A DNA stretch of 64,000 nt from the sequence record PX880099.1; one strand, given 5' to 3'. Positions 17,807 through 63,781 of the stretch are shown here, piece after piece; the first letter of the stretch is position 1; every line of letters starts with the position of its first letter. The position numbers and the translations under genes are program-made. The notes under the pieces were generated by a model, which worked only from the letters and a program-made list of their open reading frames with translations, searched no databases and was not told the origin of the DNA. This stretch comes from a phage.

Positions 17807-18279
17807 TGGCAGATTTAACTACGATCAAAATTTCTGATCTTACACAAACAACCTCTGTGTCTGATACAGATTTCTTTGTAACAGATCAGGCTGGAATAAC
17901 AAAGAAAACTTCTTTGAAAGTGCTGTTGAGTGGTGCAGGGGTAACTAGAAACCGTCTGAATGCACGGGGAACAGTAACTAGCACCCTGGCATTAGATATT
18001 AGTTCGGCAGAATATTTTTCAGCAACTTTATCTTCTGCAACGTGCACAATTAGTTTTACTAATATTCCAGTAGCAACAAATGCAGTTTTAAACTTTACTT
18101 TAGCTTTGCGTCAAGGAAGTGGTGCAAATAAAGTCGTATGGCCTTCTTCTGTAAAATGGAGTTTTGGTCGTTCCCCAGTTTTGAGTTATCGTCAAGGTGC
18201 AACAGACACTTTTGAGTTTATCAGTTATGATAATGGAGCAACTTGGACAGGTAGCTTAGTTTTAGCAGGAGTTATTTAA
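17806..18279 (+). CDS. Hypothetical baseplate-module protein
   Basis: 157 aa; overlapping stop/start with neighbours. Confidence 0.45.
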   Translation: MADLTTIKISDLTQTTSVSDTDFFVTDQAGITKKTSLKVLLSGAGVTRNRLNARGTVTSTLALDISSAEYFSATLSSATCTISFTNIPVATNAVLNFTLALRQGSGANKVVWPSSVKWSFGRSPVLSYRQGATDTFEFISYDNGATWTGSLVLAGVI

Positions 18280-21155
18280 TGTCAAGAGTTAAGCACAATA
18301 TTGACAACACGTTTCAGTTGATTGAAGGGTTGGTTCAGTTTTTGGAAAGAAATACTGGGCTTACCATAGATCCTACGGTTCAGCATTACATTATCAACCC
18401 ACAAAACGTATTGGCGAACAACAGACACTTTATTAACTGGACAGCGCAGGAAGGGCAACCAAACGGTGACGCTACTACCGAAGGTCAATCTGTGCTTATC
18501 ACTGGTTTTGCTTATGCATATTTGGCTACAGGGGATAAAAAATATCTTGAATCTGCCGAGAAGTATTGGCAAGCCTATATAGATCACTTCTTCGGGGGCC
18601 AACCTATTCCTGATCCTCCGGCTAAATATCGTCCCAACTGGATCATCAATGGTAAAGAACCACGTTTAGCACACTACCCTCTCACAGATGATGGATATCC
18701 TACGCACGGCGGGTTCAAAGGTAGCATGATGACTTGGATTAACGGAAGGACTGTTATTCCTAAAGGTGCGCCACACTGGGGAGAATACTTAGATAAAGCT
18801 TGGTTTGCTTTCAATGGTAATCTTGGTTGGAACTCTGTTAACGCAACAGTGTATGCAACTAACCCAGACGGTTCAACCAACTGGAAAGAATATGGAGATC
18901 AGTGGGACGTTGAATGGATTATAGACCGTCTAGGACGTAAAGTTGATTGGGATGGTAACATTTTATCTACTGGTCATAGCTTTGCAGAATATGGAACAGT
19001 GCAACTTAAAAACGCTTCTGTGAACGGTGACTATAAATTCAACTACGCTACATGCAACCCTGTAGAACACGGTGGATATCTGCTTAAGCGTAATGAGATG
19101 TGGCATAACCGTCCTGTAAACGTTCCGGTAGAGTTAGGTTATCAAGATAATGCTTCCGATGCTGAAACGTGGTGGTGTGATGCAAACTACTTGATGTATC
19201 AGATCACAGGAGAGAGAAAATACTGGCTTTGCTGGCAATCTTCTTTATTGCTGTGTCAAGACTACTCAAACATCGATATGTTTGATAAATTCTTCCGTAG
19301 ATCTACGACAGCAATAATTCCTTTTACAGATGGTATCTCTTATGATTACTCATACCCATCTACAGCAATACCTAAATATTCTCGTGACGAATTAGGATAC
19401 ACAGTAATTCGCCAAGATGTTGCAGCACAAACAACTCTAGAACAACAGGCAGTTTGGTTCAGAGTGGATCAGAATTCAAAACTTCGTATTGAGTTTCAAG
19501 GTGTAGATGATGCAGGGGAAGGTGTTCTTTTCCGTCCAGAGTTAGAATTAAGCAAGACTAAGAGTGAAACAGACACAGTGACATATCGTTGTGGCTTACC
19601 TCTTGGTGCAGCTAATATGACTAAGATGGATATACCTTTATCTAGTTTTATGCGCACTGAACCTCCTGGAGGTGGTGTATATATTATTGCTGAACCTAGA
19701 ATCATTGTTGACTGGGGAAGCAATACTGTGATACAATATAAATATGCAACTGGTATTGCTGGGACAAATAGTGATCAGATAGTTTCTGCTAATATGGATT
19801 CAGATGGTGGTTTTACTATTGGGTTTTGGTTAACACCAACTAAAACAGCCAATTTAAAATCTATTACGTATCGTTCATACGCAGATGATTTTAACATCAC
19901 TATTACGGATTCCGCAGGTTGGAGATGGTGGGCTATGTTAGAAAAAACAAATTCTGCATGGGTTACTAAAGCTTTAAGTCCTGCTGATTTCAAATTAAGT
20001 ACTTGGCAACCTAATCACGATGACACAGAGACAAAACCTTCGTCAATAAACCTGACTGCTGTTGATCAGATCAACATTGCATTGGATTCTGAACCTGCAA
20101 ATGGCTTGACAGGGGCAATCGACTTTTATTGCGTTAACGATATCCCATCTTTGTATTCTTCAGCCGCTGGCGATGATTACACAATGTATTTCAGGGTTAC
20201 AGTTTCATCTGAAAATCCTTATACAGCAAAACTTGGAGATTGTACAATACTGGACTACAAACTTGACAGTTTGAATTATACTCCAGGAATCATTCCATTT
20301 TCCAATATTAGTGATCCTAATACAGCATTATATGACGGTTGGCGTGGTATTCCTTACCCAGGTTATCAATACCCATCCTTATATTGTTTTAAAGGGAGAG
20401 ATATTGACTGGGTTCGTATGAACAACAGTATAGACTTTTTATATGATTCACAAATGTGGTTTTATAATAAGTTTGCCCCTGTAATGCCTGGGCCAATGGC
20501 ACAAGCTTATGTTTGGGATCGTTGGGATGCTCATAAATATGGAAACAAAAATGAGTTCACAATGTATCATTGGAACGATAAAGCTTGGGATGGTTATGAA
20601 GCACGAGCATTCTTCTGTGCGTGTCATACGGTATACGAACTGAAAAAACGAGGAGCCGAAGTTCCTGAAAAACTTTTAACAGTTTGTAAAAACTGGATCA
20701 ACTATCTGAAATGGTTCCAAGATAACAACGAAGGAAGAACACCAACAATATTTTATCCCAATGGAGAAGTGGCTGCGCCTGTAGATGACTTTACAAGTCA
20801 CATGTCTGCGCTCTTTATGGCGGGATGTGCTATAATGGGGATGGCTGGATATGATTCAGAAATTCCTAACATTAAAATAGTAGCAGACCGCTGTTTTGAA
20901 CTTATTCAGGAAAACTATATTGTTCTTGGTCCTAATCACGTCATGAATGGTTGTTGGAGTGCCGCTCCTAGACCAGATAGTGATAACGGAGTCTTCTTTG
21001 GCTTCCACGCTGGAGAGTTGTTACGTGGTTTTGGGTTGTATGCTTTATACAAAAAACTTAATCCCCAAAATGCATTACCTGTTTTGGATTCGAGCAATAT
21101 TCCTGCACTTACTGTTTTGACAATGGCAAACATTAGTGTGGACGTTACCGAGTAA
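18279..21155 (+). CDS. Large structural protein (putative tail fibre/spike or baseplate appendage)
   Basis: 958 aa; inserted between W-like and J-like baseplate genes. Confidence 0.5.
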   Translation: MSRVKHNIDNTFQLIEGLVQFLERNTGLTIDPTVQHYIINPQNVLANNRHFINWTAQEGQPNGDATTEGQSVLITGFAYAYLATGDKKYLESAEKYWQAYIDHFFGGQPIPDPPAKYRPNWIINGKEPRLAHYPLTDDGYPTHGGFKGSMMTWINGRTVIPKGAPHWGEYLDKAWFAFNGNLGWNSVNATVYATNPDGSTNWKEYGDQWDVEWIIDRLGRKVDWDGNILSTGHSFAEYGTVQLKNASVNGDYKFNYATCNPVEHGGYLLKRNEMWHNRPVNVPVELGYQDNASDAETWWCDANYLMYQITGERKYWLCWQSSLLLCQDYSNIDMFDKFFRRSTTAIIPFTDGISYDYSYPSTAIPKYSRDELGYTVIRQDVAAQTTLEQQAVWFRVDQNSKLRIEFQGVDDAGEGVLFRPELELSKTKSETDTVTYRCGLPLGAANMTKMDIPLSSFMRTEPPGGGVYIIAEPRIIVDWGSNTVIQYKYATGIAGTNSDQIVSANMDSDGGFTIGFWLTPTKTANLKSITYRSYADDFNITITDSAGWRWWAMLEKTNSAWVTKALSPADFKLSTWQPNHDDTETKPSSINLTAVDQINIALDSEPANGLTGAIDFYCVNDIPSLYSSAAGDDYTMYFRVTVSSENPYTAKLGDCTILDYKLDSLNYTPGIIPFSNISDPNTALYDGWRGIPYPGYQYPSLYCFKGRDIDWVRMNNSIDFLYDSQMWFYNKFAPVMPGPMAQAYVWDRWDAHKYGNKNEFTMYHWNDKAWDGYEARAFFCACHTVYELKKRGAEVPEKLLTVCKNWINYLKWFQDNNEGRTPTIFYPNGEVAAPVDDFTSHMSALFMAGCAIMGMAGYDSEIPNIKIVADRCFELIQENYIVLGPNHVMNGCWSAAPRPDSDNGVFFGFHAGELLRGFGLYALYKKLNPQNALPVLDSSNIPALTVLTMANISVDVTE

Positions 21156-48792: not shown

Positions 48793-49356
48793 CTAAATAG
48801 TTTTACTGTGATCGTGACAGTGTAATAAATGATGTATAGACCGTTGAGGATTTGTTTGACCTAATCTGTAAATGTGAAACAGATACATTCCCCGCATCAA
48901 TCCTAACCTCTTTCCTTTTTCATGTAAAGTGCGAGAGAAAATTAAGTCGAATTGGATAGATTTTTCTTCGAAAGGAATTTCATTCCACAATGATTTTCTA
49001 AAAAGCAAAAAGAAACCTGCTAGAGGTGTTCCGAAAGGAACTTCTTCAACACTCACTTTATGATAGTCTCTTGCAACCTTAGCATATTCTATATGGTTTA
49101 GAATATCTGGATCATCGTTAATTTGGTTAGAGAAAAGCTGATAACCACTACCTAACCTGTTACAAGTTGCACCTATTACATCAAAAGGTGGGTTTGACAT
49201 AACAAGCTCTTCAAGCATAGATGGTTGATCAGGCAGGAGGAACATCGTATCGGTATCTCTTAAACACACCCAACTATCATCTGGAAGAACGGCAATAGCT
49301 TCATTGATAGCCTTGCCGATATTTCCTGTCAGATAGGGAGTAATATAATAAATCAT
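48793..49356 (-). CDS. Putative glycosyltransferase-like protein
   Basis: 187 aa; N-terminal YYITPY...VCLRDTDTMFL resembles GT-A start with a D-x-D. Weak. Confidence 0.3.
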   Translation of the reverse strand: MIYYITPYLTGNIGKAINEAIAVLPDDSWVCLRDTDTMFLLPDQPSMLEELVMSNPPFDVIGATCNRLGSGYQLFSNQINDDPDILNHIEYAKVARDYHKVSVEEVPFGTPLAGFFLLFRKSLWNEIPFEEKSIQFDLIFSRTLHEKGKRLGLMRGMYLFHIYRLGQTNPQRSIHHLLHCHDHSKTI

Positions 49357-49372
49357 TCTCCCCTCCGTTATA

Positions 49373-49564
49373 TTAACTGTCAGCTACAATCCCACGTTTA
49401 ATCATTTCTTGTTGGATTTGGATGACACGATCTCGTGCTTCCATATATTCTTTAAAAGATTCTTGGAGATGGTCACGAGCTACATCCCGTAGTTTAATCA
49501 GTTTGTCGTTTGTCACTTCTTGAAGAGAGATCTCGCCAGTTTCATTGGTCCCAAGCGTTTTCAT
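49373..49564 (-). CDS. Hypothetical protein
   Basis: 63-aa ORF with AAGGAGG RBS. Confidence 0.45.
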   Translation of the reverse strand: MKTLGTNETGEISLQEVTNDKLIKLRDVARDHLQESFKEYMEARDRVIQIQQEMIKRGIVADS

Positions 49565-49772
49565 TTACAACCTCCTTAATAGCTACTGCACAGTTCTTAC
49601 AAATACATTGACCTTTGTTCTTAGAAATTTCAATGTAAGGTTCATTTTCGTTTTCTCCGCGTCGTGAATCGTATATTACAGTATTGAAGCAGACAACGCA
49701 AATGTTTTTAATAACGACATATTTTTGCACTTTTTGTTTAGTGCGAAAATTGACTTCAATAACTTCTCCCAT
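49542..49772 (-). CDS. Small Cys-rich protein (zinc-finger-like)
   Basis: ORF called from 49820; preferred start is ATG at 49772 (MGEVIEV...) with GGGAG RBS, overlapping upstream stop (TGATG); CVVC...CKNC pairs. Confidence 0.45.
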   Translation of the reverse strand: MGEVIEVNFRTKQKVQKYVVIKNICVVCFNTVIYDSRRGENENEPYIEISKNKGQCICKNCAVAIKEVVNENAWDQ

Positions 49773-50056
49773 CAGTGAATCTCCCCTAAAATGTTGTTTT
49801 GAGACATTACTGCGGAGCATTCTACAGCATCATGAGTCCTTGCAAAACGCTCCCACAACACAGCATCTACTTTAAGAACCATACAAGGATAAATACTGTC
49901 GTTGATCATATCAATACTGTATTTATCTACATCCTTTTCATCTTCCATAAACAAAGTAGCGTATGCTTCCAAATGCTTACGGGTGTAGTATACGTCCTCT
50001 TCGGTAAGACCGACAACCAGGTAACTTGCTACAACAACAGTATTATCTTCTTGCAT
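49772..50056 (-). CDS. Hypothetical protein
   Basis: ORF called from 50119; preferred start is ATG at 50056 (MQEDNT...) with AAGGGGAG RBS. Confidence 0.45.
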   Translation of the reverse strand: MQEDNTVVVASYLVVGLTEEDVYYTRKHLEAYATLFMEDEKDVDKYSIDMINDSIYPCMVLKVDAVLWERFARTHDAVECSAVMSQNNILGEIH

Positions 50057-57280: not shown

Positions 57281-57303
57281 AAAATAGCCTCCCGAAGGAG
57301 GCT
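57281..57303 (-). terminator. Terminator after TerC gene (minus strand)
   Basis: Minus-strand AGCCTCC / TTCG loop / GGAGGCT followed by ATTTTAT. Confidence 0.5.
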
Positions 57304-57309
57304 CATCTA

Positions 57310-58284
57310 TTAAACAGCAGCTTCTTCTTTTTCAGGGAAGATAAAGCTTGCAATAACGCCAAGAGCTAATGTGCCTAGAACAATCATCAGACTTACGTTA
57401 GGGGAAATATCATGCGGGAGGAATGACCACTTGGCATGAAGTGTTTCACCGAACGGGTGATACATAAGTTTAGCACCAACAAACACCAGAACCACAGCAA
57501 CAGCTTTCTCTAAGTGAACCAAATATTTCACAGCTACACTTAACACAAAGAAAAGTGCACGTAAACCAAGAACAGCCATCAGCATTGCAGAATAAACTAG
57601 CAGAGGTTCTTGTGTCACACCGATCACAGCCGGAACTGAATCAAAAGAGAAGACAATATCTGTAAGCTCAATAACAAACACACAAAGAAGAGCAGGAGTT
57701 GCATATTTAATACCATTCTTAATGGTAATGAACTTTTCACCATCCAGTGCATTGTGCACAGGCAGGATTTTACCTACTAAACGAACAGCCCAATGTTTAG
57801 AGTAATCGATATCCTCTTCTTCATCACCACCTTTGATGATAGCCACGGCAGACCAAGCTACAATCAAACCGAACAACACTTGGACCGACCAATGAAGGTT
57901 AAACAGAGCGGTGCCTGCTGCAACAAAAATACCTCGGAAGACAATGGCTCCTGCAATCCCCCAAAGTAAAATCTTATGTTGGAGATGTGTGCTCTTAATT
58001 CCAAAGCTTGCAAAAATTGCCATGAACACCATTAGGTTATCTACAGAAAGACTCTTTTCCAACACATAGCCACTTAGGAAAAGCGCGGCAAACTCTTTAC
58101 CATGTTCTACCCAAATGAATGCGTAATATCCTAAAGCTAAAGCAATCCAAAAAACAGACCAAAGCAAAGCAGATTTAATTCCAATTTCTTTATTCTCTTT
58201 ATGACCAAAGAAATCGATACCAATAGACAATGCTAAAATACCAACTAAAACAACTACATCAATGATTGGGAAACCAAGTTGCAT
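57310..58284 (-). CDS. TerC-family integral membrane protein
   Basis: 324 aa, multiple TM helices; conserved LSVDN motif (EKSLSVDNLMVF). Confidence 0.8.
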   Translation of the reverse strand: MQLGFPIIDVVVLVGILALSIGIDFFGHKENKEIGIKSALLWSVFWIALALGYYAFIWVEHGKEFAALFLSGYVLEKSLSVDNLMVFMAIFASFGIKSTHLQHKILLWGIAGAIVFRGIFVAAGTALFNLHWSVQVLFGLIVAWSAVAIIKGGDEEEDIDYSKHWAVRLVGKILPVHNALDGEKFITIKNGIKYATPALLCVFVIELTDIVFSFDSVPAVIGVTQEPLLVYSAMLMAVLGLRALFFVLSVAVKYLVHLEKAVAVVLVFVGAKLMYHPFGETLHAKWSFLPHDISPNVSLMIVLGTLALGVIASFIFPEKEEAAV

Positions 58285-58365
58285 TATTTTCTCCTTTCTC
58301 TTTGCGGGGAACCACTCCCCGCCTCATGTGATACATCTTACTCTTTTTTAAAACCTTGTCAACAC

Positions 58366-58587
58366 TTATTTTGAAGAACTGGAGGAAAAGATTCCACGCA
58401 GCACTGCCATAATGAACGCTACGCACACCACGGTCCAGAATGTAACAGGAACAGTGATATCTGTGTGACCCATCATTTCAACAACGTAGTTGTAAGCCAG
58501 CAGCAGAAGCCACGCTGGAATCATACTGATCAGGAAAGCCAGAACAAACACGATAACTACTGCCAGAACACCTGCAACAACACCCAT
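58366..58587 (-). CDS. Small membrane protein
   Basis: 73 aa with two long hydrophobic segments. Confidence 0.5.
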   Translation of the reverse strand: MGVVAGVLAVVIVFVLAFLISMIPAWLLLLAYNYVVEMMGHTDITVPVTFWTVVCVAFIMAVLRGIFSSSSSK

Positions 58588-58600
58588 ATTATTTCTCCTC

Positions 58601-59083
58601 TTAAAGTTTATAAATAGTCACATCGTGACCTGCTTTTACTAAAGTTTCTTCAATCATCACTTCAATGATAGCCCAATTACCTCCTGCCAACCCTGCTCCA
58701 ATCATAGGTAAACCAATCTTATGTTCGGCAGATGTGTTCACCCATTTGTGGAGATCCTTTGCCATAGCCTCAAGAGCATCATACAGGGCATCATAGTCCA
58801 ACTGACGACCTTTACCGTTATACCCGTAACGGTACTGTCCGTATAGGTTATAAACCAGTGGGTCAGACACCTCCTCCGGCACCCCTAAACTAAAAGAACC
58901 CAGCTTACTTTGATCACCTGCGGCTGTGTCCAAGTCGGCTGCATATGCATAAGGAAATGCTCGTTTAATTTGCGGAGCAATCCCTGCACCCATATTACAC
59001 ATACAGTTACAACAGTGGGCTATAACGTTCACTTCCCCGTTCTTCGCTGCATCGATCAGATTCCCAGTAACAACCTTCAACAT
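58601..59083 (-). CDS. Macro-domain protein (ADP-ribose binding/processing)
   Basis: 160 aa; N-terminal VVTGNLIDA...VNVIAHCCNCMCNMGAGIAPQI and C-terminal IGLPMIGAGLAGG match the macro-domain pattern (cf. YmdB). Confidence 0.6.
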   Translation of the reverse strand: MLKVVTGNLIDAAKNGEVNVIAHCCNCMCNMGAGIAPQIKRAFPYAYAADLDTAAGDQSKLGSFSLGVPEEVSDPLVYNLYGQYRYGYNGKGRQLDYDALYDALEAMAKDLHKWVNTSAEHKIGLPMIGAGLAGGNWAIIEVMIEETLVKAGHDVTIYKL

Positions 59084-59092
59084 TTTTCCTCC

Positions 59093-59920
59093 TTACAGAA
59101 TATGTTGTTTTGTGTAACGATCCAAGAACTCAAAGTTTTCAGTATACTTTGCAATTCGATTGTAGCCTTCAGCTAAACAGCCGAAGAAAAGTTGTTCCAC
59201 ATAGTAGTGTGGCAATTGGCTAAGAATGATTTTGAAGTCTTCATGATTTTGGCCCATAAGGTACTTAATAGGACGAACAAGACACTGTGCATCACGTTCT
59301 TCATTAATCATTTTAACAAACGCTTCTGGTGTATTAATATAGTTAAAATTCAGCTTAGCTTCGGTATCTGCTTGATTACCTTCATATTTTGCAAAATACA
59401 AGAAGTAAACATCATTTTTAACTTGATTTTCATCAAGAATCTCAATCAGTTTGTCTTCATGAGTTCCAGTGATATTTACATCATCAATGAACACAAGCTT
59501 CTTATCACCCCAGAATTCTTTGTTGCAGTAGAATGTATCCCCATCAATAAGTTTCTTACGACTAGCTTTATCTAAGAAACCATAATCGTTGATATAGCTA
59601 ACTTTACGATGAATAATATCCAGTTCTGCTGAACGACCTTGATCATATTGTGCTTGCAACATATTAAAGTAATTAATAAAATGATCTGTCATCATTGTTG
59701 CAGCATTATGCACATGGTTATAAGGAGAAGGAATGATAACAAATTGTTCCCCAATATGTTTCATTGCCACTTGAGCAAAAAACTGAAGTGCCAATTCTTT
59801 ACCCATACGACGCGCAGCTTGGTTACTGCCAAATTTCAATTTTGAATAATCTTTGATATCAAAAGTAGCAGTTTCCAGGTCATCAAATTTATTTGCAAAA
59901 ATTTGAGTTTGATTACGCAT
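59093..59920 (-). CDS. Phosphoribosyltransferase-domain protein (type I PRTase)
   Basis: 275 aa; PRPP-binding signature KLVFIDDVNITGTHE. Confidence 0.55.
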   Translation of the reverse strand: MRNQTQIFANKFDDLETATFDIKDYSKLKFGSNQAARRMGKELALQFFAQVAMKHIGEQFVIIPSPYNHVHNAATMMTDHFINYFNMLQAQYDQGRSAELDIIHRKVSYINDYGFLDKASRKKLIDGDTFYCNKEFWGDKKLVFIDDVNITGTHEDKLIEILDENQVKNDVYFLYFAKYEGNQADTEAKLNFNYINTPEAFVKMINEERDAQCLVRPIKYLMGQNHEDFKIILSQLPHYYVEQLFFGCLAEGYNRIAKYTENFEFLDRYTKQHIL

Positions 59921-60590
59921 TTACAATTTCTCCTCTTTTAAGTTTCTCTAGTAAGTCGTTAGGGTTCTTAATATGACAGAAGTTAATCCCTATGTCAACA
60001 CATTTTCCATCAAATTCTTCGCTGTCCCCAACATGTAAAATCTCTTCAGCCTTCAAAGGAATGCTTGAATATGTGGCGGTCCTAACAAAGAATCTAGGAT
60101 CTGGTTTACACAACAGATGTTCGTCTGAAAAATGCATAAATTCAAAACAATTCCAACTGTCAAACATACAAGCACGACGCAAAATATCCCCAGATATGAA
60201 ATTAGTATTGCTTTTAATACTAAGATCATATTTACCAGACAAGTATAGCAAACAAACTGGCAAATCTAAAGCAATATGTGGAGGAAATTTAAGAAACCAT
60301 TGTTCACACTCAAAACGCATTTGTGCAGATTCTACAGGGGTTAAACCTATCTTTCTTCCCAACATGTTCCATGCATATGCTACGCCTTCTGCACACCCAT
60401 TTAGTGCAGCATTATCCATAATTTCTTTGGCATCTTTATATGCTTCTTTTGCCGCACGTTCAGACATTCTACCATATGTAGCAATAGTGTGCGTACGTGC
60501 ATCTGCATAGTTTTGATTGGCAGAAATAAGAGTATTCCATACATCAAAAGAAATATGTTTTATTGTCATACTAGGCCCACCACGCATCAA
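59913..60590 (-). CDS. HAD-like hydrolase (non-canonical motif I)
   Basis: 225 aa; motif I-like ISFDVWNTL (second acidic residue replaced) and motif IV-like VGDSEEFDG. Tentative. Confidence 0.4.
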   Translation of the reverse strand: MMRGGPSMTIKHISFDVWNTLISANQNYADARTHTIATYGRMSERAAKEAYKDAKEIMDNAALNGCAEGVAYAWNMLGRKIGLTPVESAQMRFECEQWFLKFPPHIALDLPVCLLYLSGKYDLSIKSNTNFISGDILRRACMFDSWNCFEFMHFSDEHLLCKPDPRFFVRTATYSSIPLKAEEILHVGDSEEFDGKCVDIGINFCHIKNPNDLLEKLKRGEIVNA

Positions 60591-61176
60591 GATTTAAGTT
60601 ACTGTCTACCACAACTTGTTCTATGTGGTAGCCTTTTATCTGTATCCCACTGTTCAAGAGCATATCATATGCTTCATTGAAACGCAACTTATCTTCTGCG
60701 GAATATAAGCGAGCATTGTAAAATCGGTAATCAAGTTCTTCAGCATTAGAAGAAATACGGAAGAAGTTTGTTTCTACTTCAGGATCACTTGCTGAAGTTT
60801 TAATGTGAACTTCTCCGTAATTTTCTTTGCTTAGATCCATGAAAAGAACACAGGCAACATGTTTAAACATTCGTTCCAGTTTGTAACGAACAACATTGAA
60901 ACCTGCGTTCTCAAGTTTTTCTACACATTGCAACATTAACGTAGTGTCGAGATCGCTTTGATACTTTGTTAACATACGATCACGTTGAGACTTTGTATCC
61001 CGATGTAAATCAATTGTTGTGCATTTGGCACCAATGATCTTAGCTGCTTTCATCAACTCTTCAGAACTAACGTTAGATAAAGTAAGATGAAAATGGGCTT
61101 TCCACACTTTTTTAGCAGGGACACCAAAAGATTTATCCCCACTATTCGGCATGTTGACTACTACACTATGTTGCAT
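60571..61176 (-). CDS. Hypothetical protein (possible 2H-phosphoesterase-like; unverified)
   Basis: 201 aa; one H-x-T-x-like motif (AHFHLTL) and a degenerate second (EVHIKTS). Confidence 0.4.
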   Translation of the reverse strand: MQHSVVVNMPNSGDKSFGVPAKKVWKAHFHLTLSNVSSEELMKAAKIIGAKCTTIDLHRDTKSQRDRMLTKYQSDLDTTLMLQCVEKLENAGFNVVRYKLERMFKHVACVLFMDLSKENYGEVHIKTSASDPEVETNFFRISSNAEELDYRFYNARLYSAEDKLRFNEAYDMLLNSGIQIKGYHIEQVVVDSNLNLDAWWA

Positions 61177-63749: not shown

Positions 63750-63770
63750 AAAAAAGGCGCAAAGTGCGCC
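63750..63770 (-). terminator. Rho-independent terminator (minus strand)
   Basis: Minus-strand GGCGCA / CTT loop / TGCGCC followed by TTTTTT; lies just downstream of the truncated ORF ending at 63782. Confidence 0.55.
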
Positions 63771-63781
63771 TTTAAGTTTTA

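Follow-up and report, generated by a model that had tools for sequence, protein, structure and literature searches.

A stand-alone macrodomain of the Tk.4/Adpp family in a phAPEC8-like E. coli phage and its possible role against DarT2-type toxins

Introduction

The locus described here raises the question of what a small phage protein with the hallmarks of a macro domain acts on, and whether the genes that surround it have any part in that activity. It lies in a stretch of 64,000 nucleotides of phage DNA (PX880099.1), hereafter the window, which in this region shares 93–98% identity with some 65 complete genomes of Phapecoctavirus (E. coli myoviruses of the phAPEC8 type, ~150 kb). The best-matching complete genome is that of phage vB_EcoM_3A1_SA_NWU (OR062524). 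The initial annotation described the 160-aa product as a macro-domain protein embedded in a block of Ter and phosphoribosyltransferase (PRTase) genes. It proposed that the protein could reverse ADP-ribosylation-based host defence or process a metabolite made by the adjacent PRTase and HAD-like enzymes, with a nearby 201-aa ORF as a potential 2H phosphoesterase partner. GenBank records already label the gene as 'macro domain-containing protein' (phage DE16) or as 'phosphatase' (other records).

Results

The 160-aa ORF encodes a macrodomain

The ORF is found exactly where it had been annotated (Table 1), and its translation contains both motifs, GEVNVIAHCCNCMCNMGAGIAPQ and HKIGLPMIGAGLAGGNW, that had been taken as macro-domain hallmarks. 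The Pfam Macro profile (PF01661) matches 112 of its 118 positions to the protein with 22.8 bits (E = 9.6e-5), a small margin above the 22-bit cut-off, and a precomputed PF01661 match is present on many homologues. The protein also matches PHROG 335 (E = 3.7e-57), and phmmer against the PDB retrieved SCO6735 (3.4e-13), BT1257 (7.7e-9), DarG (3e-7), TARG1/OARD1 (5e-6) and Poa1p (1e-5). Homologues number 1723 in the protein database at E ≤ 1e-5 and were detected by tblastn in 2961 of 50,697 phage records. The AlphaFold2 model (pLDDT 92.6, pTM 0.90) has the three-layer alpha/beta/alpha macro fold, and Foldseek aligned it with probability 1.00 and TM values of 0.7–0.86 to TARG1, BT1257, Poa1p, DarG and SCO6735, as well as to viral macrodomains. 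Judged from these profile matches, which go well past what chance would give, and from the predicted structure, the product is a macrodomain of the ALC1/TARG1-like class, and the gene joins a known phage macrodomain family (PHROG 335), characterised only recently, as a further member that is itself uncharacterised.

Table 1. Coordinates of the macro gene and of features in its vicinity (window numbering)
Feature	Position	Strand	Remarks
Intrinsic-terminator-like hairpin AGCCTCC-TTCG-GGAGGCT with T-rich tail	57286..57303	-	Just 3′ of terC
TerC-family membrane protein	57310..58284	-	Last gene before the terminator
Mosaic segment (macro and 73-aa genes)	58300..59200		Drop or rise in nucleotide identity against DE16 and contig L016
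Predicted membrane protein, 73 aa	58366..58587	-	PHROG 16065; inherited with the macro gene as one cassette
Macrodomain gene, 160 aa	58601..59083	-	TARG1/ALC1-like class, SCO6735-type active site; Pfam, PDB, PHROG, AF2, Foldseek
Shine–Dalgarno sequence AAGGAGG of the macro gene	59088..59094	-	Strong; spaced 4 nt from the ATG; shares nucleotides with the stop codon of PRTase; read directly from the sequence
PRTase_3, ComF-like phosphoribosyltransferase	59093..59920	-	PF15610 (profile match); adjoins the macro gene
HAD-family hydrolase	59913..60590	-	HAD-then-PRTase_3 pair kept in phages and bacteria
201-aa ORF	60571..61176	-	Domain family without characterised members (PHROG 22504); motif, profile and fold tests speak against a 2H phosphoesterase

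The macro gene lies in a tightly packed gene string

The Ter/PRTase surroundings are as originally described, with PRTase_3, HAD, TerC, TelA, vWA-TerF and TerD all found nearby. The order on the minus strand is nrdD, nrdG, a 74-aa ORF, the 201-aa ORF, HAD, PRTase_3, macro, the 73-aa gene and TerC, followed by several genes of unknown function, an SprT-like gene, TelA, vWA-TerF and TerD. From the 201-aa ORF to the 73-aa gene, intergenic gaps or overlaps never exceed 20 nt. A scan of the minus strand for terminators yielded two convincing ones, both strong hairpins, just upstream of nrdD (63753–63773) and after terC (Table 1), and none in between. Given this packing and the position of the terminators, it is plausible from the sequence that the whole string from nrdDG to terC, including the macro gene, is co-transcribed. 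The 81 nt that separate terC from the 73-aa gene contain a sequence that matches a sigma-70-like promoter well (TTGACA, 16 nt spacer, TAAGAT; 58335–58362), so that terC may have a promoter of its own.

Blocks of this E. coli phage type also occur in records named Campylobacter phage (C3, D1), Acinetobacter phage (ABPW7) and Klebsiella phage ZCKP1. ABPW7 and ZCKP1 differ little from the window (95–98% identity) and Campylobacter phage C3 has a Justusliebigvirus-type PRTase (65% identity), which suggests host mislabelling or contamination.

The macro and 73-aa genes are inherited as a mosaic cassette

Compared with phage DE16, the segment carrying the macro and 73-aa genes shows 70–91% nucleotide identity between flanks of 94–100%. 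Against an IMG/VR contig (L016) the pattern is inverted, with 70–98% identity in the segment and 55–88% in the flanks. The proteins behave likewise: the macro and 73-aa proteins are 86% and 85% identical to those of DE16, for which most neighbours reach 95–100%, and 92% and 98% identical to those of L016, for which most neighbours, including TerC, PRTase_3 and HAD, reach only 66–79%. With nucleotide breakpoints at about 58300 and 59200, the two genes recombine as a cassette separate from PRTase/HAD. In line with their separate inheritance, a macro allele with at least 95% identity is found in only 5 phage records, compared to 65 for the PRTase. The 73-aa protein is found directly after a macro gene only in Stephanstirmvirinae.

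Active-site residues point to a Gln-type enzyme

His23, Asn26 and Gln83 of the macro protein are invariant among 59 homologues, and the HMMER alignment equates them with His24, Asn27 and Gln85 of SCO6735. In the latter enzyme, which removes ADP-ribose from thymidine in DNA, this activity is abolished by Q85A and nearly abolished by N27S, and Gln85 stands where DarG (K80) and TARG1 (K84) have their catalytic lysine (PMC9411070). Our alignment shows no such lysine in the phage protein, where the position is occupied by the family-invariant Gln83. Nor is there an equivalent of TARG1 Asp125, which aligns with Ala133 in the stretch G-L-A-G-G; the TARG1 sequence used here also served as outgroup. 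The SCO6735 and BT1257 sequences used for comparison were rebuilt from printed HMMER alignments.

The loops expected to bind ADP-ribose (N26, the glycine-rich G32-A-G34 and G129-A-G-L-A-G-G135) are conserved, and binding is predicted on this basis. An extended loop, Y84–Q94, contains K91 and R93. Lys34, which positions the DNA in SCO6735, is absent and replaced by Ala33, and the protein is acidic with a pI of 5.3, as opposed to 8.6–9.8 for SCO6735 (9.8), BT1257 (8.7) and TARG1. Taken together, the macro protein has the appearance of a Gln-type enzyme that is active, as opposed to the lysine type of DarG and TARG1.

Relationship to characterised macrodomains

A transposon screen performed with a DarTG2 host returned a single hit, Tk.4 (AdfM) of phage T4, and a clean deletion of this gene makes T4 more sensitive to DarTG2 (preprint 10.1101/2025.11.20.689424). 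The macro protein is 34% identical to Tk.4 over 147 residues (E = 9e-22). Both are stand-alone phage macrodomains of ~155–160 aa from the same PHROG-type family, with H-x-C-N-C and N-L-Y-x-Q motifs and a Gln at the catalytic position; both are acidic, and in neither phage does the gene belong to a NARP1 operon. At the position of Ala33, Lys34 in SCO6735, Tk.4 has a Ser. However, the loop following the Gln is shorter in Tk.4, which lacks the counterparts of residues 87–92, the T4 gene is located between tk and vs, and the anti-DarTG2 phenotype is known for T4 only, from genetic evidence in a preprint. PhiKZ gp104, likewise called AdfM, is a more distant macrodomain of the lysine type that strips DarT2 modifications off DNA in vitro (PMC13309987).

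The other phage enzyme of relevance is Adpp of Vibrio phage Gary, an ADP-ribose-1''-phosphate phosphatase encoded within NARP1 operons. It lets NARP1 overcome aRES, a RES-domain NAD+ phosphorylase defence, and helps only if both NARP1 enzymes, Adps and Namat, are present (preprint 10.64898/2026.01.28.702374). Gp177 of Vibrio phage AG74, 95.5% identical to the assayed Gary Adpp, is 39% identical to the macro protein by tblastn and 42% in the trimmed alignment. It belongs to the same family and shares the invariant residues and the long loop, but has an Arg in place of Ala33, and its gene sits between Adps and Namat. Neither is present in OR062524, as tblastn with the AG74 proteins detected no homologue in the window or in the rest of that genome. 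The remaining 9 kb of OR062524 hold only small ORFs and tRNAs, and the genome has a single macro gene.

Among solved structures, the best sequence matches are SCO6735 of Streptomyces coelicolor (PDB 5E3B) and Bacteroides BT1257 (2FG1), which resemble the macro protein in having Gln instead of Lys at the catalytic position, the conserved His and Asn, and a long mobile loop. In contrast to the phage protein, they are cellular and basic (pI ~9–10), and identity is limited to 29–35%. DarG of the DarTG2 system (T. aquaticus, 5M31/5M3E) is of the same macrodomain class (Foldseek TM ~0.75), and DarG models match the macro protein partially (NCBIfam NF048014, E = 4e-11; PADLOC, E = 4.8e-12): NF048014 scores no more than 42.7 bits against a family cut-off of 250 bits, and only the first 144–147 of 329–338 model positions are covered. 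Unlike DarG, which has Lys80 at the position of Gln83, the phage protein consists of 160 instead of ~330 aa and has no C-terminal DarT-binding domain. No darT gene adjoins the macro gene either, its neighbours being PRTase_3 and the 73-aa membrane protein, and for these two reasons we consider the protein to be an orphan. Human TARG1/OARD1 and yeast Poa1p, of the same fold class, ranked at the top of the Foldseek search (E = 2e-10 and 1.3e-9); sequence identity is only ~25%, and the Lys84/Asp125 dyad of TARG1 is replaced by Gln83/Ala133.

Phylogeny and context within the family

Among relatives whose gene context is defined, the nearest are linked to NARP1, namely those of Otagovirus Psxphi15 (48.5% identity) and Pakpunavirus K5 (44.5%), and NARP1-linked members on uncultured phage contigs are up to 55% identical. 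The macro protein resembles NARP1-linked members in loop length and acidic pI. We considered a split of the family into AdfM and Adpp branches and rejected it, since the deep nodes of a neighbour-joining tree of 75 members (300 bootstraps) have 0–30% support. Moreover, comparison of the aligned NARP1-linked, PRTase-linked and other members revealed no residue position or pI that discriminates between them. Without supported deep nodes or a residue separating NARP1-linked from stand-alone members, sequence cannot assign the substrate. This homogeneous phage family covers both reported activities, DNA de-ADP-ribosylation and ADP-ribose-1''-phosphate phosphatase.

We examined the gene context of the 80 closest viral loci in IMG/VR. 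Namat- or Adps-like genes are present within ~6 kb at 32 of them; the HAD-PRTase_3 pair is present at five, all with the Stephanstirmvirinae-type Ter/Nrd gene order. Three loci have TelA and vWA only, and at one locus the 201-aa ORF is accompanied by TerC, a vWA-like gene and a weak match to HAD, with nothing else from the marker set; the remaining 39 carry none of these markers.

Two uncultured phage-like contigs, L117 (43 kb) and L118 (336 kb), possess dense NAD/ADP-ribose clusters of the order Nudix - NAMPT-like - (NADAR) - macro - HAD_SAK_2 - SIR2 - PRPP-synthetase-like - Thg1, with macro genes ~48–49% identical to ours. In Pseudomonas phage Psxphi15 (locus L014, 1111–8990), a TelA ('tellurite resistance') gene follows 2.4 kb downstream of the Adps - Namat - macro string, which has a DprA-like gene in its vicinity; accessory genes of the Ter and NAD types are therefore close together in an unrelated phage as well.

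The HAD-PRTase_3 pair and the macro gene occur independently

The order HAD, PRTase_3, macro, 73-aa, TerC is kept in Phapecoctavirus and Justusliebigvirus. HAD followed by PRTase_3 is by itself a conserved unit, present in Xanthomonas, Rhizobium and Brevundimonas phages and at 20 bacterial loci (Rhizobium/Ensifer genomes and plasmids, Bacteroidales MAGs, Pedococcus and others). No macro homologue was found within 7–10 kb of the pair at any of the 20 bacterial or the three distant phage loci. Conversely, macro homologues exist without the pair in Henunavirus (56% identical), in a phage from the same subfamily, Klebsiella phage KP13-16 (43%), in Felixounavirus, in T4-like phages and in NARP1 operons. 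The one apparent bacterial locus with both, a contig labelled 'MAG: Proteobacteria bacterium' (JAEZZU010000022.1), was discarded as a mis-binned Phapecoctavirus contig; its 13 kb encode proteins 99–100% identical to the 201-aa ORF, HAD and PRTase_3, and the macro gene at its end is truncated.

The distant phages with the pair are jumbo phages, and TerD, TerC or vWA genes are close by at only some of the loci. In Rhizobium phage RHph_TM61 it is found ~250 bp from an NMN adenylyltransferase/Nudix gene. Against solved structures, PRTase_3 gave no meaningful match and HAD a single weak one.

The pair without macro, macro without the pair and the recombination that separates them all speak against the suggestion that the macro protein processes a metabolite made by PRTase and HAD. 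The macro gene likely acts independently of the pair and of the Ter proteins, and its embedding in the Ter/PRTase block is a lineage-specific arrangement with no demonstrated functional meaning.

Discussion

On balance, we lean towards the view that the protein is a stand-alone, active macrodomain of the Tk.4 (AdfM)/Adpp family that serves the phage as an orphan DarG-like antitoxin against DarT2-type toxins. The substrate and the biological target that we infer for it are as follows. DarT2-type toxins of the host would ADP-ribosylate thymidines in single-stranded phage DNA; the macro protein would bind the ADP-ribose, hydrolyse the group at C1'' of the ribose and in this way strip ADP-ribose from the DNA, so that replication could continue. 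Since the removal of ADP-ribose from DNA and the dephosphorylation of ADP-ribose-1''-phosphate both break a bond at ribose C1'', one enzyme may well carry out both reactions, and the macro protein probably dephosphorylates ADP-ribose-1''-phosphate in vitro as well. We rank the reversal of DarT2-type modification first because OR062524 has no NARP1 genes and because T4 provides a stand-alone precedent against DarTG2. The fast mosaic evolution of the gene, as often seen for counter-defence genes, may also be counted in favour of such a role. On the other hand, the acidic pI and the presence of Ala33 set the protein apart from the basic SCO6735, BT1257 and TARG1, which act on DNA, and would argue against it. 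The ranking is a soft one, given that the nearest contexts are NARP1-linked, that the tree lacks support and that no residue is specific to one context. Of the roles first envisaged for the protein, the reversal of host ADP-ribosylation is thus the one favoured, whereas the link to a PRTase/HAD metabolite and the 2H partner are not supported.

The main role could instead be that of Adpp, with the protein dephosphorylating the ADP-ribose-1''-phosphate generated by aRES and thereby detoxifying it or feeding ADP-ribose to salvage. This would fit the identity to AG74 gp177, a near-orthologue of the assayed Gary enzyme, the Namat- or Adps-like genes near two-fifths of the closest viral loci (32/80), the Adps-Namat-macro strings of K5 and Psxphi15, and the likeness to NARP1-linked members in loop length and pI; Adpp itself has a reported activity and an anti-aRES phenotype (preprint 10.64898/2026.01.28.702374). 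We nevertheless consider it rather unlikely, as OR062524 lacks homologues of Adps and Namat, while the phosphatase is reported to be useful only with both NARP1 enzymes (same preprint) and alone cannot rebuild NAD+. Still less probable is a function linked to NAD+-consuming enzymes of the phage itself, be it hydrolysis of O-acetyl-ADP-ribose, reversal of marks set by a phage SIR2, or clearance of ADP-ribose-1''-phosphate from RNA repair. Outside the window, genes at 17978–18793 and 49062–49994 of OR062524 do encode a Sir2-family protein and a T4-type RNA ligase that could interact with the macrodomain. SIR2 genes also lie near macro in the jumbo-phage-like NAD clusters, and PDB entries of the TARG1/OARD1 and Poa1p relatives are named for activities of this kind. 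However, the SIR2 and RNA ligase genes are ~70–100 kb away from the macro gene, and no Tpt1/KptA or 2H enzyme was found adjoining it.

A common pathway of HAD, PRTase_3 and macro, in which the latter would process a ribose-1-substituted or ADP-ribose-like product, for example in NAD+/ADP-ribose salvage or as a Ter-type nucleoside signal, would fit the tight packing without a convincing terminator from nrdD to terC, the order kept in two genera, the position of the family beside other PRTase-fold enzymes and HAD in NAD-related clusters, and the proximity of the pair to the NMN adenylyltransferase/Nudix gene in RHph_TM61. We regard it as very improbable: the 20 bacterial and three distant phage loci do without macro within 7–10 kb, KP13-16, Henunavirus and many other phages have macro without the pair, recombination breakpoints split the macro and 73-aa genes from PRTase/HAD, and a review of Ter systems names PRTase and HAD among the components, but not macro. 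A bolder version, to which we attach equally little credence, would see in the HAD-PRTase_3-macro(-73-aa-TerC) string of Stephanstirmvirinae an unrecognised pathway that handles ADP-ribose or products of NAD+ breakdown, with PRTase_3 in the place of Adps/Namat and macro supplying or cleaning a ribose-1''-substituted intermediate; its grounds are the adjacency in one subfamily and the recurrent pairing of macro with other PRTase-fold enzymes, and these only. It seems just as improbable that the protein destroys or sequesters ADP-ribose-derived immune signals such as the histidine-ADP-ribose (His-ADPR) of type II Thoeris. The macrodomains of ThsA effectors bind His-ADPR (Migulavirinae Thoeris paper), a C1'' hydrolase could in principle cleave this molecule, and a role of this sort was predicted for phage Macro and NADAR domains in a 2021 jumbo-phage review. 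Yet no family member is known to act in this manner, the family's conserved catalytic residues correspond to the ones probed in SCO6735 with ADP-ribose attached to DNA as substrate (PMC9411070), and the gene context holds no pointer to Thoeris. In the Migulavirinae Thoeris paper, macrodomains are mentioned only for the host ThsA protein. Another NAD-related system, NARP3 (PnuC/NadR), is irrelevant to the macro gene.

Whether its main substrate is modified DNA, as we favour, or ADP-ribose-1''-phosphate, the protein adds phAPEC8-like therapeutic E. coli phages to those with an orphan DarG-like or Adpp-like macrodomain. Where strains carry DarTG2 or RES-type NAD+ defences, the gene is predicted to help determine which hosts the phage can infect.

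The 201-aa ORF had been considered as a 2H phosphoesterase partner on account of a single motif. This motif, H30-L-T32-L, is indeed invariant, while the second conserved His motif is H124-I-K126-T, thus not HxT, in all 19 aligned homologues; on the motif, profile and fold tests together we reject the assignment. A PDB sequence search gave no match, tblastn against plasmids gave none, and hhalign revealed no similarity between the family profile and the 2H enzyme Acb1. Instead, the family is characterised by invariant HxHxT, ExHxK, RxKxE and RFYNxR motifs, and two PADLOC models labelled 'AbiEi' match the ORF almost end to end (E = 5e-13). A full profile search with the family retrieved 259 cluster representatives, and some homologues have an N-terminal NUDIX fusion and one an HD_4 fusion; proteins P0289, P0316, P0322, P0335 and P0353 of our collection are related. 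The ORF is probably a nucleotide-related domain, and the family may represent a nucleotide-processing counter-defence domain. In one phage contig (L119, 6001–7021) the neighbourhood is counter-defence-like, as the homologue overlaps the gene for Acb1 (anti-CBASS) and a NADAR gene lies 4 kb away.
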